From Psammoneis japonica (taxonomy: Eukaryota), in NCBI GenBank assembly GCA_008632985.1, contig QPGO01000247.1:62001-94775 (forward strand): a stretch of 32,775 nucleotides of DNA, written 5' to 3'. The notes under the pieces are model-generated. The model worked only from the letters and a program-made list of their open reading frames with translations, had not been told where the DNA came from and searched no databases. The translations under genes were made by a program, and so were the position numbers. Of this stretch, positions 6,956-25,126 are shown one piece after another. Numbering within the stretch: position 1 is the first letter of the stretch; each line of letters begins with the position of its first letter.

Positions 6956-8398
6956 ATGTCGGGAGAAACGTCGTCATCCGAACATAGGACACTGACAGAT
7001 GACGAAACTTCAACGCTGCGCGAATTGCTGAAAAAGGAGTTCTCCAGCGATCCTCAAGATGACGAGATGTTGCTGACTTGCTGGATTATACTTTTGCCAT
7101 GATTGGCAACAACAAGTCTGTTTCGTACATTGTGGATGAGTTGAAGAGTATGGAAATGTCTGTCTGTGATGAAGCGGCGTCGCAACGAGTAGGAAAAGCG
7201 CTGGAGGAGTTTCTGAAGAAAAAGGAAGTTCACAACAAGAGAGGAGGAATCGTTGTCCACGCCACGAGTCAAGTCACTCAAGTCTTCTGGAGGCAATGCT
7301 TTGACCATGTCGGGTGCTCTGGGAGCGTCACGCGAACGAGGAGGAGGAGCAAACAAGGACGAACGAAAGAAACAAAACAGGGAGCTGCATCTGCAGACAG
7401 GTCGTGAATCTGATAACAACCGTCAGAGAGGAGGCAATTATAATAATCAAGACCGAAGAGGAGGCCGAGGCGGAAGAGACAATCGCAATACACCTCAGTC
7501 TGCAGCGTTTGATCGCTTATCGAAAAATCGTCGACAGGGAAATAATAGTGATCGACGGGACGATCGACGTGGGAACGAGAGACGCGGCGGACGAGGAGAC
7601 GATCGTCGCGGTGGAGGCCGCGGGGATGACCGACGTGGAGGAGGAGGAGGCCGCGGTGGTGGCCGAGATAGCCGACGAGGTGGTGGTGGTGGACGTGGTA
7701 GTAGTGATCGGGGTGGACGTGGCGATCGTGGCGACAGAGGACAGCAGTTCTCAGGAAACCGGCGTGGCCGTGATAGTCAGGAAGAAGAGGATTTTATTCC
7801 TGCCGGCCGTGGCAGAGGTGGGCGATATGGAGATCGTCAAGGACGTGGCGATAATCGTGGTCGAGGTCGTGGAGGCCGCTTTGATAATGAGGATGGTGGT
7901 CCACCAAAGCGCCAGCGTGTTGATGATGGTAACTGGCAGCAGGAGGAATCACAAGACCAGGGCTACAACAACGAGGGATACGGTGGTTACGATGATGGAT
8001 CCGATTACTACAACTACCAGGGTTGGCGTGGAGGCAGAGGAGGAGGACGCGGTGGTCGCTTTGGCCGCGGACGAGGCGGCCGTGGACGTGGTCGTGGGCG
8101 AGGATGGGGTGGAGAAGAAGGAGAAGGCGATGAAGCTGGAACTCCCACTGAAAATGGTGGAGAAGACAGCACGAGTGATGCCGCTGCTGTGCATCCGTCT
8201 CCGATTGTTGCTGCTTCCTTTGGAGGCCGGGGAGGTCGGGGTCGTGGTCGCGGTCGAGGCAGAGGACGTGGCTTTTACCGTGCGCAAGTTGCAAGCATGA
8301 TTGCTTCAAAGACGTGGGTCCGCAAGAAGGACAACGACGAGGGTGGCGATGGAAACGGCTCGGCGGCACCTGCACCCGCCCCGGCTGCCGAGAGCTGA
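6956..8398 (+). CDS. RNA-binding protein: Nab2/ZC3H14-type PWI-like N-domain plus long RGG/RG region (frameshifted in this assembly)
   Basis: ATG 6956; after restoring single bases near 7066, 7222 and 7240 it reads DDEDVADLLDYTFAMIGNNKSVSYIVDELKSM (cf. ZC3H14 DEELPDYIMVMVANKKSQDQMTEDL), then RGG/RG repeats and C-terminal SKTWVRKK. Confidence 0.75.
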
Positions 8399-8534
8399 GA
8401 AAGCACCAAAATAATTGCTTCCGTATGACAGGGAGAATACTTCGGATTGGTGAGTCTCCATTCGACCACTATCCCGTGGTTAAAAGTGGGAGAAGGAAAC
8501 GATTGGATTTACAGTGACCATACGTGGGATGCGT

Positions 8535-11699: not shown

Positions 11700-12202
11700 A
11701 GAGCGCTTTCGAATATTTGTAATATTGTTCTAGTCCTTGTTGTTTCATTTCAGTGTGCACTCTCAAAAGTTACGCGTCGACTTCATAAGTTGTGCGTCAA
11801 GATATGCCTATCAAACAAATAGTTTCAGTTCGTTACTAGACCTAATGATCCACTCGGGGAGTTCTTCTGATTTACCATGATGGAGTTCCGTTAGGCTCTA
11901 GAGTTACAGCAAGAATCTTGTTTGGCGCTGTCCCAAGTCCCAACCAGTGCGACGAGTTGAAGTTAGAGCGCGCTCGCGACACGTTCGACATCACGTCGAG
12001 CCTTCGCATTTTGCGCTCGGCGATGCGGTGCAAAGATTTTGTCACGACTGATGCGATGACTCTGGACAACAAACAACACTCAAAAACGCGAGCGCACTAT
12101 CGTCTCTATTGCTTCAGAAACTGCCTTGTTAGATTGCATTTGCTTGTTTACGAGGGCGAGCTAAAACGAAAAAGTACTTTGGGGAGAGATGAATTATGAA
12201 TT

Positions 12203-14838
12203 ATGGATCAGAATCAAGAAGAAGAAAACACCGAGCTGCCTATCGATTACTATGATGAGTTGAGAAGAAGCAACGTTGCTTTTACAACACAGCTAGGATC
12301 CTCAGTCGTTCTGGTTAATGAAACATTGAGGCTATGCAAGTTGACAAGCTTGCTTCCAACCACAGTCAGACAAGCCGGAGCTCATCCGGAAGTGGTGGCA
12401 GAGCGAGTGTTTTACGAATTGTCCGCATGGATAGCAATGAATCACTTTAATCAGAGAAATGCAACCATTGTGCCGCTATTGAAAGACTTGGAAGAGTGCA
12501 ACATGTACCTTACAATGGAATTCAGAGATACACAATTTAGCCCGATAGACGCGGCGAAACAATACTTGGAAGACACATTGATACCGAAGCATTCCTTGGC
12601 AACGCCTTTGCCGTTTGGGTTGATTGGTGCTTCACGATCTGCTGTTTCAGTGTCGGTGGCTACCTTGGCTGGCGTTGATGGAATACCTCTAGTGAGTGCA
12701 GAATCAACATCATCACAGCTTGACAGGGAAAGCTCGTATCCGTTCTTTGCCCGCACCATTCCTACAAATTCGGGTGAGGCAATGGCGTTGCTACTGTATT
12801 TGGAGTCCATTGGCGTGGAGCATTTAGGTGTCATGTACGTAAGGGATTCTTATGGAACCGACTACTTTGCAGGCTTTTTAGCGGCCGCAGCATCCCTCCA
12901 CCACTCTATTCATGTGCATGGAGCGCCGTACGAGGACGGAAACACCGACAGTATTGACTCTGCAGTGGCTCGATTGAAAGCTTCTCACGTCAGGTATTTT
13001 GCAGGAATCTTCGGTTCCGAAAATCACAAAATTGTATTGGAGCGAATTCACAATCAAGGTCTGATTGGTAACTCCGAGTTTGCTTGGTTCTTTGGTGATG
13101 GACTGTCCTCGCTCTCTCAGCCAGGTTACGAACTAGACCCCAACACGGAAGCTCATTTGGCGTCGGCCATTCACGGATCCGGTGTCGTTTTGTTAGACCT
13201 ATCGATGAATGAGCAGTTGGAAACAAGTGTCCTTGAGATGTATGAAAGTGAAGAAATGATGAAACACTTTGTTTCAATGCATGTAGGTGTATTGTTTTGT
13301 TGGCTTTCAGCCCTGCACTATTCTCCGTCTCCTTTTCTCATTGATCTTTTCGCTGTTGAATGAGCAGGCTGAAGACAAGCTTTTCGAGTCCCTCAATCTA
13401 TCGACTGTTCCTTTTAGTAGCTCTGCATATAATGGCTTGGTATACGACGCAGTCATGACTTTGGCGATTGCGGCTTGTCAGACGAACAACAGCTTCTTCT
13501 CGGGCGCTGAACTCTACAACCAAGTACGGTTGACCGAGTTTGAAGGAGCCTCCGGATTTGTATCCTTTGATCCCGAAAGCGGCACAAGACGAGTGGAAAC
13601 CACAAATTTTCAAATCTTAAATGTTCTTGCCAATCCTATTCGAGACGGAGTATTGACTTTTTCAGCCCGGCGGTCTGTTTCGATTGCTACAACCAACAAT
13701 CGAACCGAAATCCGAGACTTTTCTCATGTTTATTGGAACAATAGCACAACTCCGCCAATGCCGCTACCAGAAGTACAAGATGAAGATCTAAACTATATTG
13801 GCCGAGCAGAAAAGATTGTGGGGCTAACCATGGCTGGGATTGTTATTGTCATGTCGACAGCATGGATGGTTTGGACGATTCGTAATCGAAAGCGACCCGT
13901 CATTAGAGCTTCTCAACCTGCCTTTCTTGGAATGCTCTGCGTTGGTACTTTAATAATGGCGTCAGCTCTAGTTTTTGCATCGCTGGAAGAACCTGTCAGT
14001 GACCAAGTACTTGACATTGCATGCATGGCCGTTCCCTGGCTATTTTCGATTGGATTTGTAACTGCGTTCTCAGCTCTCTTCACGAAAACATGGCGGATAA
14101 ACAAGGTAGGGCAGCTGTTATCGTTTCGATTCTCGCCAATGTTATTGCGCGTGCCTCATGAATGTTGTGTGTTTCAAGTTGTTTCACATGAGCCAGGAGT
14201 ACCGACGAGTTGAGATCCGAGCCAAGCATGTTCTTCCACCTTTCCTGATTCTCATGGCCATTAACATTGCCATTCTGACAGCATGGACCATCGTTTCTCC
14301 ATTGGAATGGACAAGAATAGAATTGTCAACCAAGGACGAGTTTGGTCGGAGCACGAGTTCGTATGGAACGTGCTACAGCTACGACGACACTACAACGTAT
14401 CTGTTTTTGCCTTTGCTATTACTCGTCAACTTTTGTCCTCTCGCCTTTGCAACGTACCAGGCGTATCAGTCGCGTTTACTGCCTCCATCCAACTTTAACG
14501 AAAGTCACTACATTGGTATTTCACTGGCAATGATGACAGAGTCGTTTCTCATTGCATTGCCTGTCTTCTTTGCGGTGCACGACAACCCTTCTGTTTTCTT
14601 TTTTGTCAAGTGTCTTTTGGTTTTTATTGTTTGCCTGGCAATCTTGCTTCCCATATTTGTTCCCAAATACCTCAAGAGAAATGAACGACCGCAAGGAGTT
14701 TCCAGGCGGCGTCGATTGAGGACATCTGCAATCTCGCGCAGCAATCAATATGATGGATCCGCAGCTTTCTCCCAAAGGCATTGCAGATTGAATCAGTCAA
14801 GAGTAACGGAGGCGCGCGTCTCGAGCCATATGAGGTGA
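12203..14838 (+). CDS. Class C GPCR (GABA-B-like): Venus-flytrap ANF_receptor domain plus 7tm_3; 3 exons (12203-13282, 13368-14105, 14179-14838)
   Basis: IGASRSAVS, STSSQLD..YPFFARTIP, DSYG, YDAV, FEGASGFVSFD (ligand-binding domain); IRASQPAFL, WLFSIGF, ALFTKTWRINK, FNESHYI, IFVPK (7tm_3). Two phase-0 GT-AG introns restore frame. Confidence 0.92.
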
Positions 14839-15317: not shown

Positions 15318-16463
15318 CTACTCGGCTACTTTGCAGTCAAACCCTATCCTGGAAAGAGTATTTATCTCCTCAAAGTGTTGTTTGATGGCATCAATCGACG
15401 TTTTTGGTATCGGTTCTTCCCCCGATCCAGTCCACACTATATCTGTGCTGTTGCAAACTCGTCAAGAAATCCGTCAAAGGGTACCATGTCTTTCACCAAT
15501 AGACGTGCATTAATAGCAAGAACAACACCTGTCACAAAGTATCGTATTATACACAATACGAGTAGAGATCCCATCCAGTAGTTGAGAACACGCAACAGAA
15601 AAGAGTTCAACCTCCAACTCCACCCGTATGCTTACCTGCAGATCGCTCCATCACGTTGTACTTGTAAATGAGCGCCGTCATGCTTGCCAGATCCTCGCTT
15701 GTATATCCACTTTCAGCATCATGTTCTACTCGAAAGCCCAAGGAAAACGCAAAGGGGTATTTGCTCTTTTCAATCACGCTCAAACACGTGCTGACAAAGG
15801 CATCCGCATCAAAGTTTGCACCGTCTCGGTGTCCAGGTCCCGGCAAAATGTCAGCATTCAGGTAAATAACATTGCCAGTCGGAATAATACTAGATGATGC
15901 ATTGGTAAACAAGTCGAGCGCAGGTTGTACCACCTCCAATTCTTTAAAGTCCAGCTTGAGGTGTTTGCGTAGTGCTCTTTCATCTAGTAGCCCGTTGTTC
16001 TCCCCTCGTGTCATCATGTCAAAGACAGTCTTGACTGCAAGATCGGAATCAACTTCGGGTGGATGAGAACATATTGGAATTTTCGGTCTCTCGTGAAGTG
16101 GATCTGTAGTCACATCGTATCCCATGAGCAAATCCATTTCAATGGCTGTTATGTTTGGATCCTGAATCGCCGCATACAACATGCTTTTCGTGTTGGTGGC
16201 ATGACTCCATGTTTGATCACCCGGTGGGAGTTCTTTGACTTTTGTTCTTCTTCTGAGGGAGTAGTAGTATCAGTAGAAATTGGAAAAGGCATAAAGCTCA
16301 AAATCACAATCAGCGCCATTGCTACCAAGAGAAAAAAGATTCCAGAGCGACGCCACGATACTCGTCGACTGCCGTGTTCACCCACAGAATCATCATCATC
16401 CAGAAAGATTCCGTCTTTCTTCCAAGACAGATTGGCCTCCTCCTCGTCGTGTTCATCAGGCAT
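15318..16463 (-). CDS. FAM151/menorin-like (DUF2181) membrane-anchored PLC-like phosphodiesterase-fold protein; intron 15529-15635; frameshifts near 16240 and 15438
   Basis: N-terminal TM segment, then TWSHATN, IEMDL, PICSHPP..SDL, LKLDFK, YLNADILPGPG, FSLGF, GYT and after the intron VWTG..RIGFD, the FAM151 motif order. Confidence 0.85.
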
Positions 16464-16947
16464 GTTATTGTTGTTGTTCTATTGGAGGTACAATGAAGAG
16501 CAGGGGGGCTAACTTACGGGACGCAGTTGACTACCGCCGCCATGGCTTGTAAAGGTTTTGGGCGTTGTATGGAAGATGGAATTCTGGATGACGGACGACG
16601 GACGAGCTCCGAATTGGCACGAATAAATTCCGCTTTCATGTGCATCACGGGTCTCAACGGCCACGTCAAAGAGAGTGACACTTTCGTGTCTAAGTAATTA
16701 TGAAAATTCAACGGCTGCTCTCATTTGATTGGTCAATTTTCCAAGTTGAAGTGACGTAGATTCAATAAAAAGCTACAAAATGAAGGTTACTTAAAATGTC
16801 CCTAACATCAATATTATTAAGCCCTTAATAAATAAGTTGCGAACATCTTGGGTGGCGAATTTTTGGAGACGCCATTTTGCCTGCTGTCTTTTGCCGCCAC
16901 TTTGCACCAAAGTCTGTTCTTCCAAGTTAAACCTGGAGTGCATAATC

Positions 16948-18060
16948 ATGCAGAGCAGAGTTGCCATCAATGTGTTTGGCTCGTCAAGGGGTCAAGTGGT
17001 TGAGACAAAGGAAAGAATGAGCGCTGAAGACCGAAAGAAAAAGGCTGTAAAGTGGTGGAAGACACGTGCCTGGATGGGTGGTCGTGGCAAACATGGGAAT
17101 AGTAGCAGCGGCTGTGAATCTGATGACCGAAAAAAGCAAGAGACAGAAACAGCACCGCTTGAAAAAGTAAAGAACCGTGATGTTGATGTTTGTGATGCTC
17201 CACAAGCGAAATCTTCATGGTTTCATAATCCGTCAGTGGGTCACTCGAGCAGCGACGGTGACGATTCCTCGGTTGCTTCGGGCACAAGTAGTGTCTCTTC
17301 TATTCTGCTACGAAACAAGCGCTCTCGCAAGACTCATCCCACGTCGGACGATCAACCACTCGTCACACCGAAAAGCAACCGCGCCATTCGTTTTGCCGAC
17401 GAAGAGGGACAACCGGTCGCCACGATTCGTTTTACCGAACGAGCGGAACCGTCGCAACGTCATGATTGGGTGCGAATCATTGTGCTCTTGGTGGCACCCA
17501 AACTCAAAAAGTTTGAATTTGTTCATGTCTATTACAATGTCAAGGAATGCAACTACATGACGAGTGTACTTCGGCACATTCGTCATGTCGCCACTCATCG
17601 AGTACTGGCCGATCAACGATATGTTGGACTATGCCGTCTAGCGGATGGTGGCAAGGAGCTGCTCAATAGGTATTCCATTCAAGATTACAAGCTGGAACGA
17701 CATGAAGTTCTTGCAGCCATTCCCAAGGGTATGAAGGCATCCGAACTCTATCCCATTGCCGGTCAACTTTTGGCTGACAACAAGAGAGTGGTGCGTGTCA
17801 TGAATCGATCCAAATGGAAGACCCGTCGCATCAAGTCGGGTAGGTCCAGCAGCAGGTACTCTCAGCCACTCGACATGAAGGAATTGGATGACGCCTTGCC
17901 AGAGAGTGAAGGTCGCAGTGGAACCCGAGATGGCTTTGTGGACGAGCGACTCATTCCGCACCTTGTTCATACCGGGGTCTTTCTCACGCCGCTTTTAGTC
18001 AACACGCACAAGCAAGTAGCGTCCAATTCAAGATTCTCGGTATCGACTGCAATCCGATGA
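16948..18060 (+). CDS. Hypothetical protein with RVxF-type PP1-docking motif and a compact alpha/beta domain; 3' end uncertain (may extend to ~18337)
   Basis: Long ORF; Ser-rich disordered N-half, RAIRFADEEGQPVATIRF, then globular RIIVLLVAPKLKKFEFVHV..HEVLAAIPKGM. A hydrophobic ORF at 18143-18337 after a TTTCAG acceptor may be a last exon. Confidence 0.65.
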   Translation: MQSRVAINVFGSSRGQVVETKERMSAEDRKKKAVKWWKTRAWMGGRGKHGNSSSGCESDDRKKQETETAPLEKVKNRDVDVCDAPQAKSSWFHNPSVGHSSSDGDDSSVASGTSSVSSILLRNKRSRKTHPTSDDQPLVTPKSNRAIRFADEEGQPVATIRFTERAEPSQRHDWVRIIVLLVAPKLKKFEFVHVYYNVKECNYMTSVLRHIRHVATHRVLADQRYVGLCRLADGGKELLNRYSIQDYKLERHEVLAAIPKGMKASELYPIAGQLLADNKRVVRVMNRSKWKTRRIKSGRSSSRYSQPLDMKELDDALPESEGRSGTRDGFVDERLIPHLVHTGVFLTPLLVNTHKQVASNSRFSVSTAIR

Positions 18061-19230
18061 ATCTAATAATGGAATTGAATACAGTAGGAAAATAGGAAAC
18101 GGAACTGCTCGAGAGCGAGGTTAATAAATTCATTCTCAATTTTTGCAAACTGCACTGTTTCAGGTGTCTGAGGCACGACATTGTGCTTGTTTTTGTCTCG
18201 TTTCATGGATACCTCCATTCATGGCAGCACTAGTTAGTACCGTAGTAAGCATGATGTTGTTTGAACAATTCTTTCACTCTCCTAGTTGGATTACACAGCA
18301 GTACAACATCATCCAGAGTGTCGCGTGCGATGCCTAATCGTTCAGCCAAATCAAACCATTCTACAAGTCATGGACGACGACTGTGCTGGCAGTTGTTGAC
18401 GGTGCGTGTGCCGGCACTGGAGAGGGTTTCGGCATGACAAAGCTGGAGCAAATTGCACCACAGCTCTCCCACTGACGTGTCGTTCGTTCACTGGCTTTTT
18501 CCAGCCATCACAACAACCAGCTGACAGGGAGTGCTGGAAGTGTGAGTTGGCCTGCCACAGCTTTGCTGGACAGCAGTGTGGCAGCAGCACTGTAAATCGG
18601 AGATGTGGGGGTGTTTTTTACAGGGACTTGATGCATGACTTTTTTTTTAATGAAGCTGTGCTGGCTGCCAGCACAGGCTTTTTTTCTAGCTGGGACAATG
18701 ATGCACAGGAAAGAGAAAGCCACACACATCCCCAAGAAGCAACTCTCAGATCAATGCTGAGCCAGGGCTGGAGCACATCTCCATTAAAGCTCAGCAGGTG
18801 ACATTGCATCAGCTGAGTCCCTTGTCGCAGAGCACACCAGATGGTCTCCTCATTTTGCTGCCAGCCAAAGTGCGCCCTTCATTTGGAAGAGATGCCACAG
18901 CTGGTGTCTTTCCCTCCCCATTGTGTCTTTCCCTCTCACCATTGTTTGGCAGGAGCCACATGAGATCACCTCCTCCTCAGAACAATTGTGCAACAGACAA
19001 GACACATTCACTCCAACCCTCGCCGCAAGAAGGCCCTTGCATCCGTTGGGATTTCTAGAAAGCTGCTGCAAGTTGCCAACAAACACCACTGTCCTGAGGA
19101 GGAAGAACGACCTTCTCTGCTGGCAAATTCTTTGCGCTAAATTGGGTGGATGTAGAGCTGGTGTGATTTCAAAGACATGGTTGTCATTCGCACTCTCCCA
19201 AGCAAACTTCTTCAAGCACATGAAGCCCCT

Positions 19231-19261
19231 TGTGTGTGTGTGTGTGGGGGGGGGGGGGGGG
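19231..19261 (+). repeat. (TG)n microsatellite followed by poly-G
   Basis: TGTGTGTGTGTGTGTG then a G run of about 15. Confidence 0.9.
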
Positions 19262-19879
19262 CATGTGGCAACCAAACAAATCCAAAATCTTCATTGGAGC
19301 ACCCAGCCGACTTTCAAACTTGTTGACATGTGCATCAAAATGCCAAATTTGGTGGGGGCTGCACAGCAGCAAGAGTGGAAGTGATCTTCTGATGCCAGCC
19401 ACATGCCACATTGAAGTCATGCAAAAAAGTGCAACCTCCAACAGCTTCTTGAACAGCTTCTCTTGACCAAGCTTTGCTGCCCATCATGGCTGCAACAATT
19501 CAAAATGTGCAAGATTGCCAGTGCAAATGTTGGTGCTTGGCTCTTGCAGCAAGTTTGCCAACAACAAAGAGCCCCTCATTGATGAGTGTCCTTGACATGG
19601 AGCTCACTGCACAAGTCCCAAGCCTGGTTGTTCTGTGAAAACAGAGCCCTGGAAGCAGACACAATTTCCAGCCACCACCATGCATGAAAAGTTGTTTGTG
19701 CTCAGCTGAAGTTGTGTGAGATGTCTGTGTTCTCATGCAAAGCAACAAACTTGGAAGATTGTCACACGAGATGTTGGTGTGACTCATGACTGCCCCAATC
19801 TCCTTGAAGAGAAATTGCTTCATTGTTTTGCAGCTGTGCGTGATTTTTTGCTGGGTGTGGGCAGCAAGTTTTTGTGCAA

Positions 19880-19957
19880 AAAAGTGATCCAGATGTCAGC
19901 ACAAAAGTGATCCAGATGTCAACACTCTGTGGCATGAACACATGCATGAACACATGC
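19880..19957 (+). repeat. Two short tandem duplications inside the depleted block
   Basis: AAAAGTGATCCAGATGTCA twice, then GCATGAACACAT twice. Confidence 0.85.
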
Positions 19958-22787
19958 ACTGTGCCACACAAAGCGTGAAGTGCCCATGACCACAGGCAAA
20001 ACAGTGGTGGCAGCAGCAGAAGAGTGGCCCCCACCCATGTCAAAGGACAGGAAACAATGTGCAGAGCTGAGCATGATTTAAAAGAAGAGCTTCCTTGGAG
20101 CCAGAATGCGGCTGCTCAGCTGGCATTGATGGGCTGGCTGGTTGTTGCAGAAGCTTGGCACCAGCAACAAGCAGTGCATCAAACAGCCAAAAGCAGCAGA
20201 GGAGGATCAAAAGGCAGCCAGAGCAAGAAAAAAATGAGAGGTTTTGGAGCAAGAGCAGCTTGGCAAGCAAAAATGGGACAAGGAGAAACAGGAGATTCAG
20301 GTGTTGGAAAGGCTTGCCTGCCACAGGAGATGTTTTTTGCAAGAAACAACACAAAGACAAAAGGAAGGCTGCAATGATGACAATGCACACTTCATCAATG
20401 ACGATGAAGACCACAATGAAGGCACTGAAAACAAAACAATTGAAACAACAAAAAAGAAGCATGGCTCATGTTGGCACAAACCACAACTGCTGGCTTGCTG
20501 CTGTGCTGTTGAATTGCTTGTAAGAGCACACTGTGTCAGCATGCCAAATCCATGGATCACAGGCAGACTGTGTGCAGACAATGGGGTCTGACAATTCTGG
20601 ACAGCCAAGCAGATGGCAGATCTTTGCCTGGGATCTGCTTCCCACTCCTTTTTGCCACTGCACATGTTGCAACTGCCAGGCTTGTGCAGAGGGAGGCTCT
20701 TGTCACTTGTGAACTCTGCCAGTGCAGCTGCTCCATCATGCCACAGCCTCATGCTTGGTTTGCCATCAGTGCCATCCTTGTCTTTGCCTTCTCCCTCACC
20801 CATTGCAGCAGTGTGATGCTGCACAGAATTGCACATGTGGCAATGCACACAAAATTTGTGGCTTTGAAGCTGGTGTGGCACTGGGCTTCTGCTCTGCAGG
20901 GCTGTGCCACAAATGATGGTTTCTCCTGTGCCACATCTCAATGGATGACACCCTCTCATGTCTTGAGGTGAGTGATGCCCCTTTTAGGCTGGCTGAAGTT
21001 GGCACCTTGTCAGACATTCAACTTGTGGTGTGGGGTGCAAAGCAAGGTGTCAGCCACCCTTGCATGCAATGCAGAGTTTGTGTCACACACAAGGCACTTT
21101 GCCAGGAGGATGACCTGCAACACATGCCATTCCATCATGAACTTTAACCCACACTGTTGGATGACCTGCCACAGGAGGATGCCAACAGCCTCTTCTCATT
21201 CTTGCAGGTTTGCTCTTTGCAGTCTTCCAGAAGAAAACATGGAGTTCTGCTTGACAGCAAGATTTGTTTGGGAAGAAAATGACAGCTTTGTTTTGAAATG
21301 GAGAAATGACATGACAGCCAAAGGTTTGGAATCTGTTGGAGATGGCAGGCATCTCTGCCAGCTGCTGCTCTTGTTGCTGGAGTGCTTTGTGCCAGCAATG
21401 TTCCAAAAGGCACCCATGATGAGTTGAGTGCCAGACTGATCATGCTGCACTCCACTTGTTGTGATGTGTGAAGACAACAGTGTCTCTTCAATTTTGGTGT
21501 GGAGACATGGACACTTGCAAACACAAATCACACACAAGCACTGGCCCATGGTGTGCTCTGACAGAATGGGCAGGAGCTGACATCTGCTCCCCTGGCATGT
21601 TTTGAAACACAGAGACAAAACATGAGATGTTGCACCCATGAAAGATGATCATCTGCCCAAGTCTCTCAAAATGCCGTGGTCGTTTGCCAAAAATCAACTT
21701 CATTGAGGAAGCCACCATTGTTGATCTTCTTCTCCACCTGTCCAAGCACCAGGTCCAATCACAGTGGGGTTGGGGAGGGGGGCAGAGTGGTGCCTGCACT
21801 GTTGGAGGCTTGCTGGATGAGTGGAGCTGAGTGACCAAAGCAACAGCTGGGATCTGTGACAGCATCGATGAGCACTTGTTGTTGTTGAGCTCTCCCAGCA
21901 GAATGCCCAGCCCCCAAATCTCATCTTCCAATCCCCTTTCAGCGCAAATTAAGATTTCTTTCGTCCCCTTCAATGACAACATTGGCAGACTCTTCACCCT
22001 CCCATTTCTTTTCCTGCTCTTGAACTGCCAGAACACGCACAGAGCAATGACGAGCCTGCGCATCTGCAGCGCACTCCAGCTCCAGGTGTGGCTCCGTGCG
22101 ACATGTTGGGCACAGAGAATTCCATGTGCATGCTCTGTGGATAAATTGTCAGGTGACGAATGTGCCAAAATGATTGCCAACAGAAAACAGACAATTTTCA
22201 AACTTGCTTGTGAACTCGCCGCCCCATTCTTGGAGCACATCATCACCTCCAGCTTGCCCAGGTGGTGTTCATTCAGACACAAAGAAAACACGCAGCCCCT
22301 TTTGTTCTCATAAATGGGTGAAATAAAATGCCATTGGCTTTGCAAAACAGGGATTGCGAAACAATTATTACATGTTCGTAAAAGCAAGAGGCGCAGTAGA
22401 ACACCTGTCATAGCTCTAGAGAATCGCCGAAACGCGCAAAAAAGTGAGAAATCGCGGCGGCAGCATTATGTAATTTTGAAATTTATCCCAACATATATTT
22501 CTTATACAAAAATATGTACATCGACATTCAACGGACAAATTCAAAATACAGCAGAAAAGCTTTGTACAACTCTACATACAGAGAAATGAACGAGACGCAA
22601 TACGAGTGATGGCGCTAAGTTTTTCACATGCTAACGGCTAAAACCACCCCACGTCTGATTAACGACACAACAACTAACCAGCTCCAGCTCCATCATCACT
22701 CATCATCATCCATCATACCGTTTTCAGTTTGATGTTTCTCCTACTTTTCGTCACACCGTCGAAATTTTGGGCTTGTGCTACAGAAAC

Positions 22788-25126
22788 ATGCCGACCCTAA
22801 TGATGTTTCCGATCAAGAATGGGATGGAAAAACACGACGCACAAGAAAATCGAGACGACGCCAAAGGAGAGAAGATAAAAGCAATAAATTTGAAGGTTTC
22901 CTCCATTGTAAGAGATCACTATGGTGATAGACCTATTCCGCGATTCGAGATGAACAAACAAGAACACGACAGAGTCGAATCACTGTTGAAGCGGCTGAAA
23001 ATATCGTCGTCGTGTCCGAGACCGCGTTCCTCTGAACAGATCTGCGGCATGATCGATGCAAGTAGCAGTACGAAGACCAACATAATTTGCACCCACCGTG
23101 AAAGCAGCAGAAACTCCTCCGATGATTCCTCGGTTACAACGCTTGGCAACAACAATGATTCAACGATGCTCGATGACACAACGATGGAAAATGAAGAATC
23201 AATTGCAATCGTTCCTGGGAGCAATGAGTCACCCTCAAATCGGGGTCTCGATACTCTGAACCAATCGTCTCGTACTACTTTGAATGACACTACCATGACT
23301 GATCAGAGCTCCATCCTATTGCTCTCGCCGGCAAATTCCGGCACGGCTTATGCGCTGGCGTATGGCTCTCCCGACGAGACGTTTCCTCCGCCTGACAATG
23401 ATTCCCGCTTCAACGACTCGAAAGATATGGATAGTCCGATAGCCAACCATCTCCCAGTAACAGCGAAAGTGTGACTCCAAAGAAGGCCAACCGTTCAACC
23501 ATTTCGGAAGCATCGATGGGGTTGCTACCTGCTGATAACGGGGATTCGCCTGTAGACCAGACGGTAAAGAGTCAGTCACGCCATCGAAGGCCCGAGAACC
23601 GGCACTATCAAAGTGATGATTCATCCATGTCAATGGAGGCTCCCAGGAGAAGAGATGTTTTTGATTCTCCTGCATCATCCAACATCTCCCGGAACAAACG
23701 ACAAGCATCAACCAGTGGGAAGAAGGGCATGGACCATTCTCGCTTAAGAACCGATGGCTGTTCACCGGGCCATTGCAGTTTTGTTTCATCTTCGGAAGAT
23801 ATTGATTCCCCTCCTTCTTTGTCGTTGACTCCTTCGTTGTCAGTCGAGTGTGGTTCGTCGGAGCATGAGCAACCAAAACTGTTTTCTGCGTCACAATCTC
23901 CAATCGTTCCCTACGGCGACGATGAATACGGAGATCTTTCCTCTGACGACAGCACAACTCATGGTAGAAGAAACAGACACACTTCTAATGTTCTCAGGGA
24001 TAGGTATAACAGATCCAATGCTGATGAAACCGTGGAGACCGTCGATTGTACCATATTACAACGGCGGAAGGTTCGGTGGAATGTTGGTACTAACGACTCT
24101 TATCACGACGAGCCAAACATCCAACTCAGAGACGGCGCCATATTTAGAAAAGAGCCTCTGCACGTTCGGCGTCAACGACCTTACCGCTCCATGGCTGCTT
24201 TGTCATTTCCCGACCCTCTATCAGGCTACCAAGGACATGTTATGGAGCGACTGAACAAAATTCATCAGTGGATGTTCGATAGAGAAGGTGCTTGGGACGA
24301 TGCTCATAAATCCGGGGTAATTGTGTCCTTATCTACGAAGCAGATTATGAATGTCTCCATGAAGCTGTTACTATCAACGAAGAGGAAGAAGCGCACAGCA
24401 AAGAGAGAAGCATCGAGTCAGTCGCAGCAGCAAGCTAGCGAGGAGCCTATTTCCGGTGGCACTTTGATTGTGGTGCGGGACAAGGAAGACTTGCAGCTGT
24501 GGCAAAGTGCTCTACGCGAGGGTACAGCTCATTCCGTTTTTGATTTCACCACGTTGACGCCAAAGGAACGGCAGCGCAAATCAGCAGGTCACGCATGCGC
24601 TGGATTCGATATCGTATTGTCAACTTTTGACGCGCTCAAGTCCAAGGATCTCGCAGTCGCATTGGATAGCAGTGGTCATGCTGTGTCACAAAAACTGGGT
24701 TATCAAGACGGATGGTATTCTAGTCGGAACAGCCAGGACTCAGGAACCGCTCATTATGAGCCTCTTACTGTGATGCACCATATCACATGGGATAGAATTC
24801 TGCTTGTGGACGTGTTTGGGAGAAAGAGCTACATATCTAAACCTGGTACTGCTCGTGTCAAGGCGTCCGTGGCATTGAATGGGTCGCCAAGGTAAGTCAC
24901 TATGAGTAGGGTCCCCCGAAGCAAATCTATCAGAAGCTTACAAGCTACTGCTTTTCATAGATTCATTTTCTTTGTGAGACAGGAGGGGGATAGGCATCCG
25001 TTACGTGAGCTTGCGAGCCATGACCAAAAGGCGATGCGGGCTATACCCGCAGTGCTCCGACTACCACCGAAAGAGAGCGAAGAAGAGACTATTCTGGACT
25101 ACATCGTAGGGCACGAGGATTTGTGA
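22788..25126 (+). CDS. Large disordered protein ending in a degenerate SNF2-type ATPase N-lobe; frameshift near 23470; intron 24892-24960
   Basis: GGTLIVV..LQLWQSAL, FDIVLSTFDAL, LTVMHHITWDRILLVD, TARVKASVAL..R follow the RAD5/RAD16-like SNF2_N motif order; GTAAGT donor and TTTTCATAG acceptor restore frame to TGA 25126. Confidence 0.7.

Follow-up and report, generated by a model that had tools for sequence, protein, structure and literature searches.

The window, the whole 32.8-kb stretch of DNA that was analyzed, contains a 4.7-kb intergenic gap between two genes of ordinary composition. This gap is occupied by a block of about 4 kb that has lost nearly all of its CG and TA dinucleotides and that starts ~300 nt past the stop of the left neighbor. 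Among the relatives of a flank protein, those named by organism were diatoms only, and the right neighbor has divergent paralogous pieces in a public sequencing run (X1, see below). The features are as follows.

16795..18060, plus strand: left neighbor, a 421-aa open frame of ordinary composition, without a Pfam family
18363..22310, no strand: TA-free zone, 14 TA in 3948 nt (flank minimum at equal size, 105)
18363..18592, no strand: left shoulder, 0 TA in 230 nt, CG near normal (9 vs. 12.8)
18486..21865, no strand: CG-poor zone, 17 CG in 3380 nt (~188 at the flank rate of 0.0556 per nt)
19201..21660, no strand: saturated core of 2460 nt, by direct count 6 CG, 4 TA, 310 TG, and 292 CA
19231..19261, plus strand: a (TG)n tract that leads into 16 consecutive G, within the block; the X1 contigs break here (skipped repeat 19224-19268)
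21866..22310, no strand: right shoulder, 2 TA vs. 18.3 expected, CG only halved (13 vs. 24.7)
22659..24895, plus strand: right neighbor, two open frames (271 and 486 aa) of ordinary composition, without a Pfam family

We recounted the core and obtained exactly the numbers that the original prediction had estimated (~6 CG and ~4 TA); the dominance of TG and CA that it described was borne out as well. The counts correspond to observed/expected (o/e) ratios of 0.04 for CG (144 expected by base composition) and 0.02 for TA (162 expected), with TG at 2.08 and CA at 1.86, a doubling of the two together. Flank dinucleotide rates predict 137 CG and 101 TA in the core (Poisson P = 4e-50 and 5e-38, respectively), and the minima among 239 flank windows of 2460 nt were 104 CG and 51 TA. 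A dinucleotide scan found no comparable CG/TA-poor stretch elsewhere in the 32.8 kb. The purge of CG and TA from the block is a real observation, confirmed by these counts.

The composition of the core supports transitions at every CG and TA step. Such transitions would account for the preserved number of pyrimidine-purine (YpR) steps (612 vs. 613 predicted by purine/pyrimidine content), for the near equality of TG and CA, and for the preserved G+C content (48.5% vs. 47% in the flanks); when all flank CG and TA were collapsed in silico into TG/CA, the CA/TG o/e became 1.95, matching the 1.96 of the core. CpG decay by itself would cost ~5 points of G+C by our arithmetic. The order of TG and CA along the core was random (runs test, z = -0.55), as expected if sites on either strand changed one at a time and independently of each other, and there were no strand-coordinated mutation clusters. 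Distinct 6-mers numbered 1654, only ~3% below the dinucleotide shuffles (1706 ± 15), and tandem repeats spanned ~120 nt, ruling out a decayed microsatellite.

We also mapped the borders of the two losses, refining the interval of 18370..22320 that had been proposed for the block as a whole. The TA-free zone ends abruptly, with dense TA at 18210-18362 and again from 22311, and the CG-poor zone is nested within it. No 445-nt flank window, out of 2786, was as poor in TA as the right shoulder, and 10 of 2829 flank windows of 230 nt were TA-free like the left shoulder. Because the TA-free zone overshoots the CG-poor zone on both sides, pointing to two footprints, the borders favor a separate TpA process.

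The block is rich in open reading frames. Over six frames, 18450-22200 contains nine of at least 140 aa, compared with 3.3 ± 1.7 in 300 dinucleotide-preserving shuffles, none of which reached nine. The six-frame translations of the core are nearly free of Tyr (0.02% vs. 2.31% in the flanks) and rich in Cys (7.4% vs. 3.65%) and His (5.84% vs. 3.42%), confirming an earlier remark to that effect, with Arg at 3.36% vs. 8.58%. We observed no Pfam family in any of the six read-through frames of the block, no matches in word-index protein searches with its 228-aa and 160-aa frames, and no HMMER match among 1.84 billion representatives for a read-through frame of 723 aa; the top ESM Atlas score was 0.77, a low recognition. 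The core also showed no 3-base periodicity, and a coding origin was dropped on these grounds. Such blocks yield long spurious Cys/His-rich, Tyr-free frames that gene callers may annotate as proteins.

Searches for the origin of the block returned no terminal inverted or direct repeats beyond those in shuffles, no target-site duplication, and no transposase or reverse-transcriptase remnants (Pfam on the six read-through frames); without these marks, the known transposable-element classes (LTR, TIR, and non-LTR) were rejected. There were no DNA relatives in viral contigs (scans) or metagenome contigs and nothing similar elsewhere in the window (blastn and tblastn). Rfam gave no family, the sole match being a sub-threshold Histone3 stem-loop (22.5 bits vs. 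a gathering score of 34), which we treated as chance, and no RNA run was among the public runs listed as containing the block. Run X1 contains the block at single-copy depth together with more divergent pieces, among them a 1.6-kb contig that matches 19800-20700 at ~81% identity, and these divergent paralogous pieces suggest that the block is a repeat. It is probably a ~4-kb noncoding relic, either a decayed low-copy repeat or a foreign insert.

Among public runs, the block was present only in X1; its coverage in X2 and X3 is slight or nil, and absent cover is uninformative. The X1 contigs span 16000-19621, 19804-21702, and 21755-24810 at a flank-like word depth of 55-63 and differ from the window at 24 letters, 2 of which lie outside the differences listed and compared here. 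The block is most unlikely to be an assembly artifact. X1 is possibly the window's own source sample or culture, so its support is not fully independent. Among the differences listed, 12 fell within 3617 covered nt of the block, and 8 of these 12 were transitions between CpG and TpG/CpA: 6 at CpGs of the window and 2 at sites where X1 carries CG (20178 and 20541). In the right shoulder, the CpGs at 21943, 22060, and 22096 showed transition differences and that at 22052 a transversion. Residual CpGs with a transition difference among those listed were 6/35 in the block vs. 2/275 in the flanks (Fisher P = 3e-5). CpG decay therefore appears still active in the block, and this excess is the direct signal of the loss of CpG to TG/CA that had been predicted. 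The only TA/CA difference among the 12 listed, TA in X1 and CA in the window at 20396, is unpolarized, and none of the 14 window TAs within the TA-free zone is among the listed differences, very few TA targets remaining.

The original prediction called for a separate TpA process and held that no mechanism for it had been described. The first part is favored by the wider TA-free zone; the second is outdated. The available text of a 2026 preprint reports de novo hypermutation of TpA to TpG/CpA in Bigelowiella natans, restricted to viral DNA that has integrated (Mettrop et al., bioRxiv 10.64898/2026.01.13.699255). In two viral inserts, 230/231 de novo mutations were A>G/T>C, at TpA (210/211 and 20/20 per insert), with essentially no accompanying C>T, and the enzyme suggested for this is an ADAT2-like adenine deaminase that acts on DNA. 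According to the same text, the genome has 124 clusters with the footprint of TpA hypermutation, in which 78 of 96 genes are unannotated. By our arithmetic, these numbers give a rate of ~9e-6 per TpA per generation, at which a 97% purge of TpA would take ~4e5 generations. Applying the cluster thresholds of the preprint, which were set on the 5% tails of the B. natans genome rather than those of the host, singled out four consecutive 1-kb windows (18001-19000, 19001-20000, 20001-21000, and 21001-22000) and none of the 28 others.

The best explanation, which we hold with moderate confidence, is a decayed block saturated by two context-specific transition processes, one at CpG and one at TpA. The first would convert CpG to TpG/CpA, likely by cytosine methylation of a silenced element and subsequent deamination, whether through passive 5mC decay or an active process of the RID/DNMT4 type. 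The second would convert TpA to TpG/CpA, equivalent to A>G on either strand, as measured in B. natans. Together they would turn every CG and TA step into TG or CA, sparing the purine/pyrimidine pattern and G+C content and erasing TAA/TAG stops. We infer that the TpA loss was mutational; the block was presumably methylated or silenced, and by analogy the same kind of enzyme as in B. natans may act in the diatom-like host. The block is thus probably a case of B. natans-type TpA hypermutation combined with CpG decay.

Several observations weigh against this explanation. No polarized TA>TG/CA change was seen, the one TA/CA difference among those listed being the unpolarized site at 20396, and X1 and the window may come from one and the same culture. 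Homology, terminal repeats, and Pfam lend no support to a foreign or mobile origin. GpC has an o/e of 1.40 in the core vs. 1.10 in the collapsed flanks, suggesting that the ancestor was not ordinary host DNA or that a further process was at work. CpG is absent from the available B. natans text, and the thresholds applied are another genome's 5% tails.

An element that arrived free of CG and TA, or was kept so, would require no TpA mutation process here. A foreign replicon, or a noncoding RNA or chromatin element avoiding both steps, could have such an intrinsic or selected composition, and we regard this as unlikely. In its favor, the TA-free zone ends abruptly, as a discrete inserted unit would; GpC and other dinucleotides have frequencies unlike those of the host flanks; and TGA and TCA fall below their counts in dinucleotide shuffles (92 vs. 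111 ± 7 and 67 vs. 92 ± 6, respectively). However, o/e ratios of 0.02-0.04 for both steps lie far under any genome-wide bias that we know of, and both the conserved YpR count and the agreement with the collapsed flanks are predicted by mutation, not selection. Furthermore, the X1 haplotype has CG at two sites and TA at one where the window has CA, and the block has no RNA family above threshold and no coding periodicity.

A single coupled process is less probable still. Here, T:G mismatches from 5mC deamination in a heavily methylated block would recruit error-prone patch repair that introduces A>G at TA steps close by, much as non-canonical mismatch repair with DNA polymerase eta does in antibody hypermutation, so that TpA loss would be a by-product and no second defense would exist. 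Both purges share one core, near saturation there, and CpG deamination seems to be ongoing within the block, consistent with coupling. Polymerase eta errors favor A>G at WA motifs. This hotspot, as generally defined, includes AA, yet AA and TT both have an o/e of 1.19 in the core, without AA depletion, unlike the pattern of polymerase-eta mutagenesis. In B. natans, TpA mutations run essentially without C>T (the 210/211 and 20/20 above; bioRxiv 10.64898/2026.01.13.699255, available text). The TA-free zone moreover extends into DNA where CG is near normal (left) or only halved (right).

We consider it very improbable that the block derives from RNA hyper-editing of a retroelement transcript (ADAR-like A>I at UA), followed by reverse transcription, insertion, and later CpG decay; ADARs are metazoan enzymes by general knowledge, and the block is without reverse transcriptase, LTR, or poly(A) tail. 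The divergent copies in X1 would fit such an origin, as would the preference of ADAR-type enzymes for a 5' U, cited in the Discussion of the B. natans preprint (bioRxiv 10.64898/2026.01.13.699255, available text). However, TG equals CA in amount and the two alternate at random, indicating that both strands were hit equally, contrary to one-strand RNA editing, and the A content of 27.6% is not lowered, nor is AA depleted. Lastly, we give almost no credence to an assembly or sequencing artifact: the block was found in one run only, possibly the source sample, but the short-word contigs of X1 reproduce it at depth 55-63 with a handful of differences, it is continuous with normal genes on either side, and we know of no artifact that removes TA.

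Returning to two processes at CpG and TpA, we tentatively entertain a wider reading, in which diatoms, as the rhizarian B. natans does, would run a DNA-editing defense that turns every TpA of a marked element into TpG/CpA, beside CpG methylation and deamination; as part of the same joint claim, both self-complementary pyrimidine-purine steps would be erased in a "YpR purge". If true, TpA editing would be an old, SAR-wide arm of genome defense, with the block as its end state at full saturation. Diatoms would then be tractable for finding the enzyme and its targeting, as they offer CRISPR knockouts, methylomes, and mutation-accumulation protocols.

Among known systems, APOBEC/ADAR-type deaminases mutate invading viruses and retroelements in animals with a dinucleotide context preference; their substrates are single-stranded DNA or double-stranded RNA, and the signatures they produce are partial and strand-biased. 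Unlike these, the pattern of the block is strand-symmetric, dinucleotide-exact, and saturated. With the CpG decay of methylated transposable elements, the block shares a conversion of CpG to TpG/CpA in noncoding, repeat-like DNA, a CpG deficit offset by a TpG/CpA excess in the core, and strongly raised transition differences at residual CpGs (6/35 vs. 2/275 among the differences listed). However, ordinary methylation decay is less complete than the CpG o/e of 0.04 seen here, and TpA loss is no part of that process. In diatoms, transposable elements are methylated in a DNMT5-dependent manner, and many species have RID-like DNMT4 genes whose function is unknown (PMC9998398, available sections). 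This RID-related family is a shared link to fungal RIP, which, like the CpG-targeted RIP-like mutation of basidiomycetes, resembles the block in being a context-specific, transition-only hypermutation of silenced or repeated DNA (PMC3318451, available sections). Classical RIP turns CpA into TpA and thereby raises TpA, whereas TpA is erased in the block; the core shows the opposite pattern (TpA o/e 0.02 and CpA o/e 1.86), and fungal RIP was rejected.

The closest likeness is to the B. natans footprint as given in the available preprint text: clusters of a few kb, mostly unannotated, poor in TpA and rich in CpA and TpG. The block is likewise short of TpA and rich in TpG and CpA on both strands, in a local, discrete stretch. 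It differs in that its purge is near total (Rho_TpA 0.03-0.05 vs. 0.45 in the B. natans NCLDV region) and in that CpG is purged as well, a double purge without precedent in that text, where CpG is mentioned zero times. The hosts also differ, a diatom-like stramenopile here and a rhizarian there, and the block is known from standing sequence, without viral or transposon homology. TpA-targeted hypermutation of invading DNA has to date been reported from one organism, in this 2026 preprint, and our literature search found no report of it for diatoms (some matches used TPA with another meaning). Finding a saturated TpA-free block in a diatom-like genome suggests that the process is not peculiar to one chlorarachniophyte, and the block displays what is likely its end state, coexisting with CpG decay.

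The core of the CG- and TA-depleted block (19201-21660, 2460 nt) contains exactly the 6 CG and 4 TA counted in the original prediction. Base composition predicts 144 CG and 162 TA for the core, and flank dinucleotide rates predict 137 CG and 101 TA (Poisson P = 4e-50 and 5e-38, respectively); the minimum among 239 flank windows of 2460 nt was 104 CG and 51 TA. TG (310) and CA (292) were each found at ~2-fold expectation. A 300-nt sliding scan of the 32.8-kb window revealed no second place like the block. The extents of TA and CG depletion differed:

18363-22310: TA-free zone (14 TA per 3948 nt; same-size flank windows all have at least 105 TA)
18486-21865: CG-poor zone, to which CG poverty is limited
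18363-18592: left shoulder (TA 0, matched by 10/2829 flank windows of 230 nt)
21866-22310: right shoulder (TA 2 vs 18.3 expected; equally TA-poor flank windows of 445 nt, 0/2786)

The borders of the TA-free zone are sharp, with 9 TA in 18210-18302 and 8 TA in 22311-22417. CG was near normal in the left shoulder (9 vs 12.8 expected) and merely halved in the right (13 vs 24.7 expected).

Four internal tallies indicate that otherwise ordinary DNA underwent transitions at its CG and TA steps. The core has 612 pyrimidine-purine (YpR) steps vs 613 expected from its purine and pyrimidine content, so the change is confined to which pyrimidine and which purine are used. TG and CA are nearly equal in number and are interspersed at random through the core (runs test z = -0.55), as would be expected if both strands had been hit many times independently. 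G+C is 48.5% in the core vs 47% in the flanks; arithmetically, CpG decay alone would cost ~5 points of G+C, and TA>TG/CA restores them. When every CG and TA in the flanks was collapsed in silico to TG or CA at random, the CA/TG observed/expected ratio (o/e) was 1.95 vs 1.96 in the core. There was also a misfit: compared with the collapsed flanks, the core has more GpC (o/e 1.40 vs 1.10) and less GA/TC. Given this GpC excess and GA/TC shortfall, the ancestor of the block was probably not average host sequence; a foreign origin is putative. Over 18450-22200, both TGA (92 vs 111 +/- 7) and TCA (67 vs 92 +/- 6) are rarer than in dinucleotide shuffles, and the two purges leave this rarity and the GpC enrichment (o/e 1.4) unexplained.

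The ORF features noted in the original prediction were borne out. Over 18450-22200, we found 9 ORFs of at least 140 aa vs 3.3 +/- 1.7 in dinucleotide-preserving shuffles (shuffles with 9 such ORFs, 0/300). Six-frame Tyr is near zero in the core (0.02% vs 2.31% in the flanks), Cys (7.4% vs 3.65%) and His (5.84% vs 3.42%) are raised, and Arg is 3.36% vs 8.58%. The block showed no 3-base periodicity, in bases or in purine/pyrimidine pattern, no Pfam family at E<=1 in any of the six frames read through stops, and no Rfam family at threshold. Two block ORFs had no match in a 5.8-billion-protein index, nor did a 723-aa read-through frame among 1.84 billion representatives; the best ESM Atlas score was 0.77, with low recognition. 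No relative was seen in the viral and metagenome contigs scanned, and nothing elsewhere in the window resembles the block. Long terminal repeats, inverted repeats and target duplication were looked for, and none was found. A decayed microsatellite was rejected on the number of distinct 6-mers (1654 vs 1706 +/- 15 in shuffles).

X1, a public sequencing run, contains 0.84 of the block's sampled words. Its contigs span 16000-19621, 19804-21702 and 21755-24810 with 12, 7 and 5 differing letters, respectively, at a word depth (55-63) equal to that of the flanks; X1 may be the window's own source sample, making its support not fully independent. Across these three long contigs, 22/24 differences were located (two are unlisted), 12 in 3617 covered block nt and 10 in 4960 flank nt. 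CpG<->TpG/CpA transitions accounted for 8 of the 12 block differences:

19021, 19024, 20402, 21943, 22060, 22096: CpG transitions, CG in the window
20178, 20541: CpG transitions, CG in X1
22052: CpG transversion
20396: TA/CA difference (window CA, X1 TA; direction not polarised)

The remaining block differences were two other changes. Transitions affected 6/35 window CpGs in the block vs 2/275 in the flanks (Fisher P = 3e-5). CpG loss in the block appears to be still running, in the pattern expected of methylated CpGs; methylation itself is predicted. Diatom transposable elements are methylated via DNMT5, and RID-related DNMT4 genes of unassigned function occur in 31/60 surveyed diatom species (PMC9998398). 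None of the 14 window TAs left in the TA-free zone differed in X1.

Among X1 records similar to the region, 31/53 are at <90% identity, and a 1.6-kb single-depth contig matches 19800-20700 piecewise at ~81%, showing that the sample contains old, divergent relatives of parts of the block. At 19231-19261, within the core, a (TG)n tract precedes 16 consecutive G, and contigs from short reads are interrupted there. Near the left end, 18531-18569 (39 nt) is the sole part matched by several X1 contigs, which continue into unlike sequence with normal TA content; this piece is a further small dispersed repeat. Just beyond the right end, 22321-22621 (chiefly 22330-22366) has a summed word depth of 554 vs ~55 in the flanks and loose ends on both sides, indicating an adjoining ~ten-copy short repeat of normal composition.

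An intrinsic or selected composition would account for the sharp block ends and the odd GpC, but we consider it unlikely in view of the exact YpR bookkeeping and the CG and TA alleles tolerated in X1. Less probable still is a single coupled process, in which T:G mismatches trigger error-prone repair that removes TA: AA is not depleted in the core (o/e 1.19), the TA-free zone extends beyond the CG-poor zone, and TpA mutation in Bigelowiella natans proceeds without C>T, according to a preprint (bioRxiv 10.64898/2026.01.13.699255). RNA editing followed by retro-copying is very improbable given the strand symmetry of the block and its lack of retroelement features (reverse transcriptase, LTR and poly(A) tail). 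The chance of an artefact is slighter again, as X1 contigs reproduce the block and rule out a consensus or polishing error.

The gap between the block's two plus-strand neighbours, both of normal composition, is 4.7 kb long and largely taken up by the block; the rest of the window's genes are eukaryotic:

16795-18060, plus strand: left neighbour, open frame, no Pfam family
22659-24895, plus strand: right neighbour, two open frames, no Pfam family
12200-14838: class-C GPCR (ANF_receptor + 7tm_3), split between three overlapping frames, as two short introns would produce

Further genes encode Menorin, CRAL/TRIO, COQ7 and an NAD-binding protein, whose top matches are at 55-56% identity and whose only two organism-named matches come from the diatoms Pseudictyota dubia and Entomoneis paludosa. 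On this basis, we take the source to be a diatom, or closely related to one, that lacks near neighbours in the databases. Within the right neighbour, 23166-24824 has several pieces 80-85% alike in X1 contigs, with segments skipped or replaced; this gene is a member of a small family. Elsewhere, 7217-8468 is GC-rich (58-59%) and strongly G-skewed, with long open frames overlapping on both strands and no Pfam family.

As originally proposed, the best reading is a second flux, specific to TpA, alongside CpG decay; the view that no such mechanism has been described is outdated, since TpA hypermutation has now been reported in B. natans (Mettrop et al., dated 2026-04-14; bioRxiv 10.64898/2026.01.13.699255). 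In that preprint, 231/302 nuclear point mutations in mutation-accumulation lines lay within two integrated viral regions, and 230/231 of these were A>G or T>C on TpA (TpA>TpG or CpA), at ~6e-7 per site per generation and in some lines only; the genomic footprint clusters are largely unannotated, and an ADAT2-like DNA adenine deaminase is proposed as the enzyme. With cluster thresholds borrowed from that other genome, four consecutive windows pass here (18001-22000) and 0/28 others. From the counts given there, 231 mutations over ~8469 TpA sites and 3132 line-generations give ~9e-6 per TpA per generation, at which a 97% purge takes ~4e5 generations (callability ignored in both), so that saturation as in the block would be easily reached. 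Further literature searches on TpA-type hypermutation and repeat-induced point mutation, covering diatoms as well as other organisms, brought up no other relevant work. From composition and this precedent, we infer that TA was probably lost by mutation in this organism, and that the block most likely represents, in a diatom-like genome, a TpA-hypermutation footprint of the kind reported in the rhizarian, here saturated and overlaid with ongoing CpG decay. The preprint text mentions CpG zero times, whereas the block loses CpG too; relative to B. natans, the novelty lies in the lineage, in how complete the purge is and in its coupling to a loss of CpG at the same locus.
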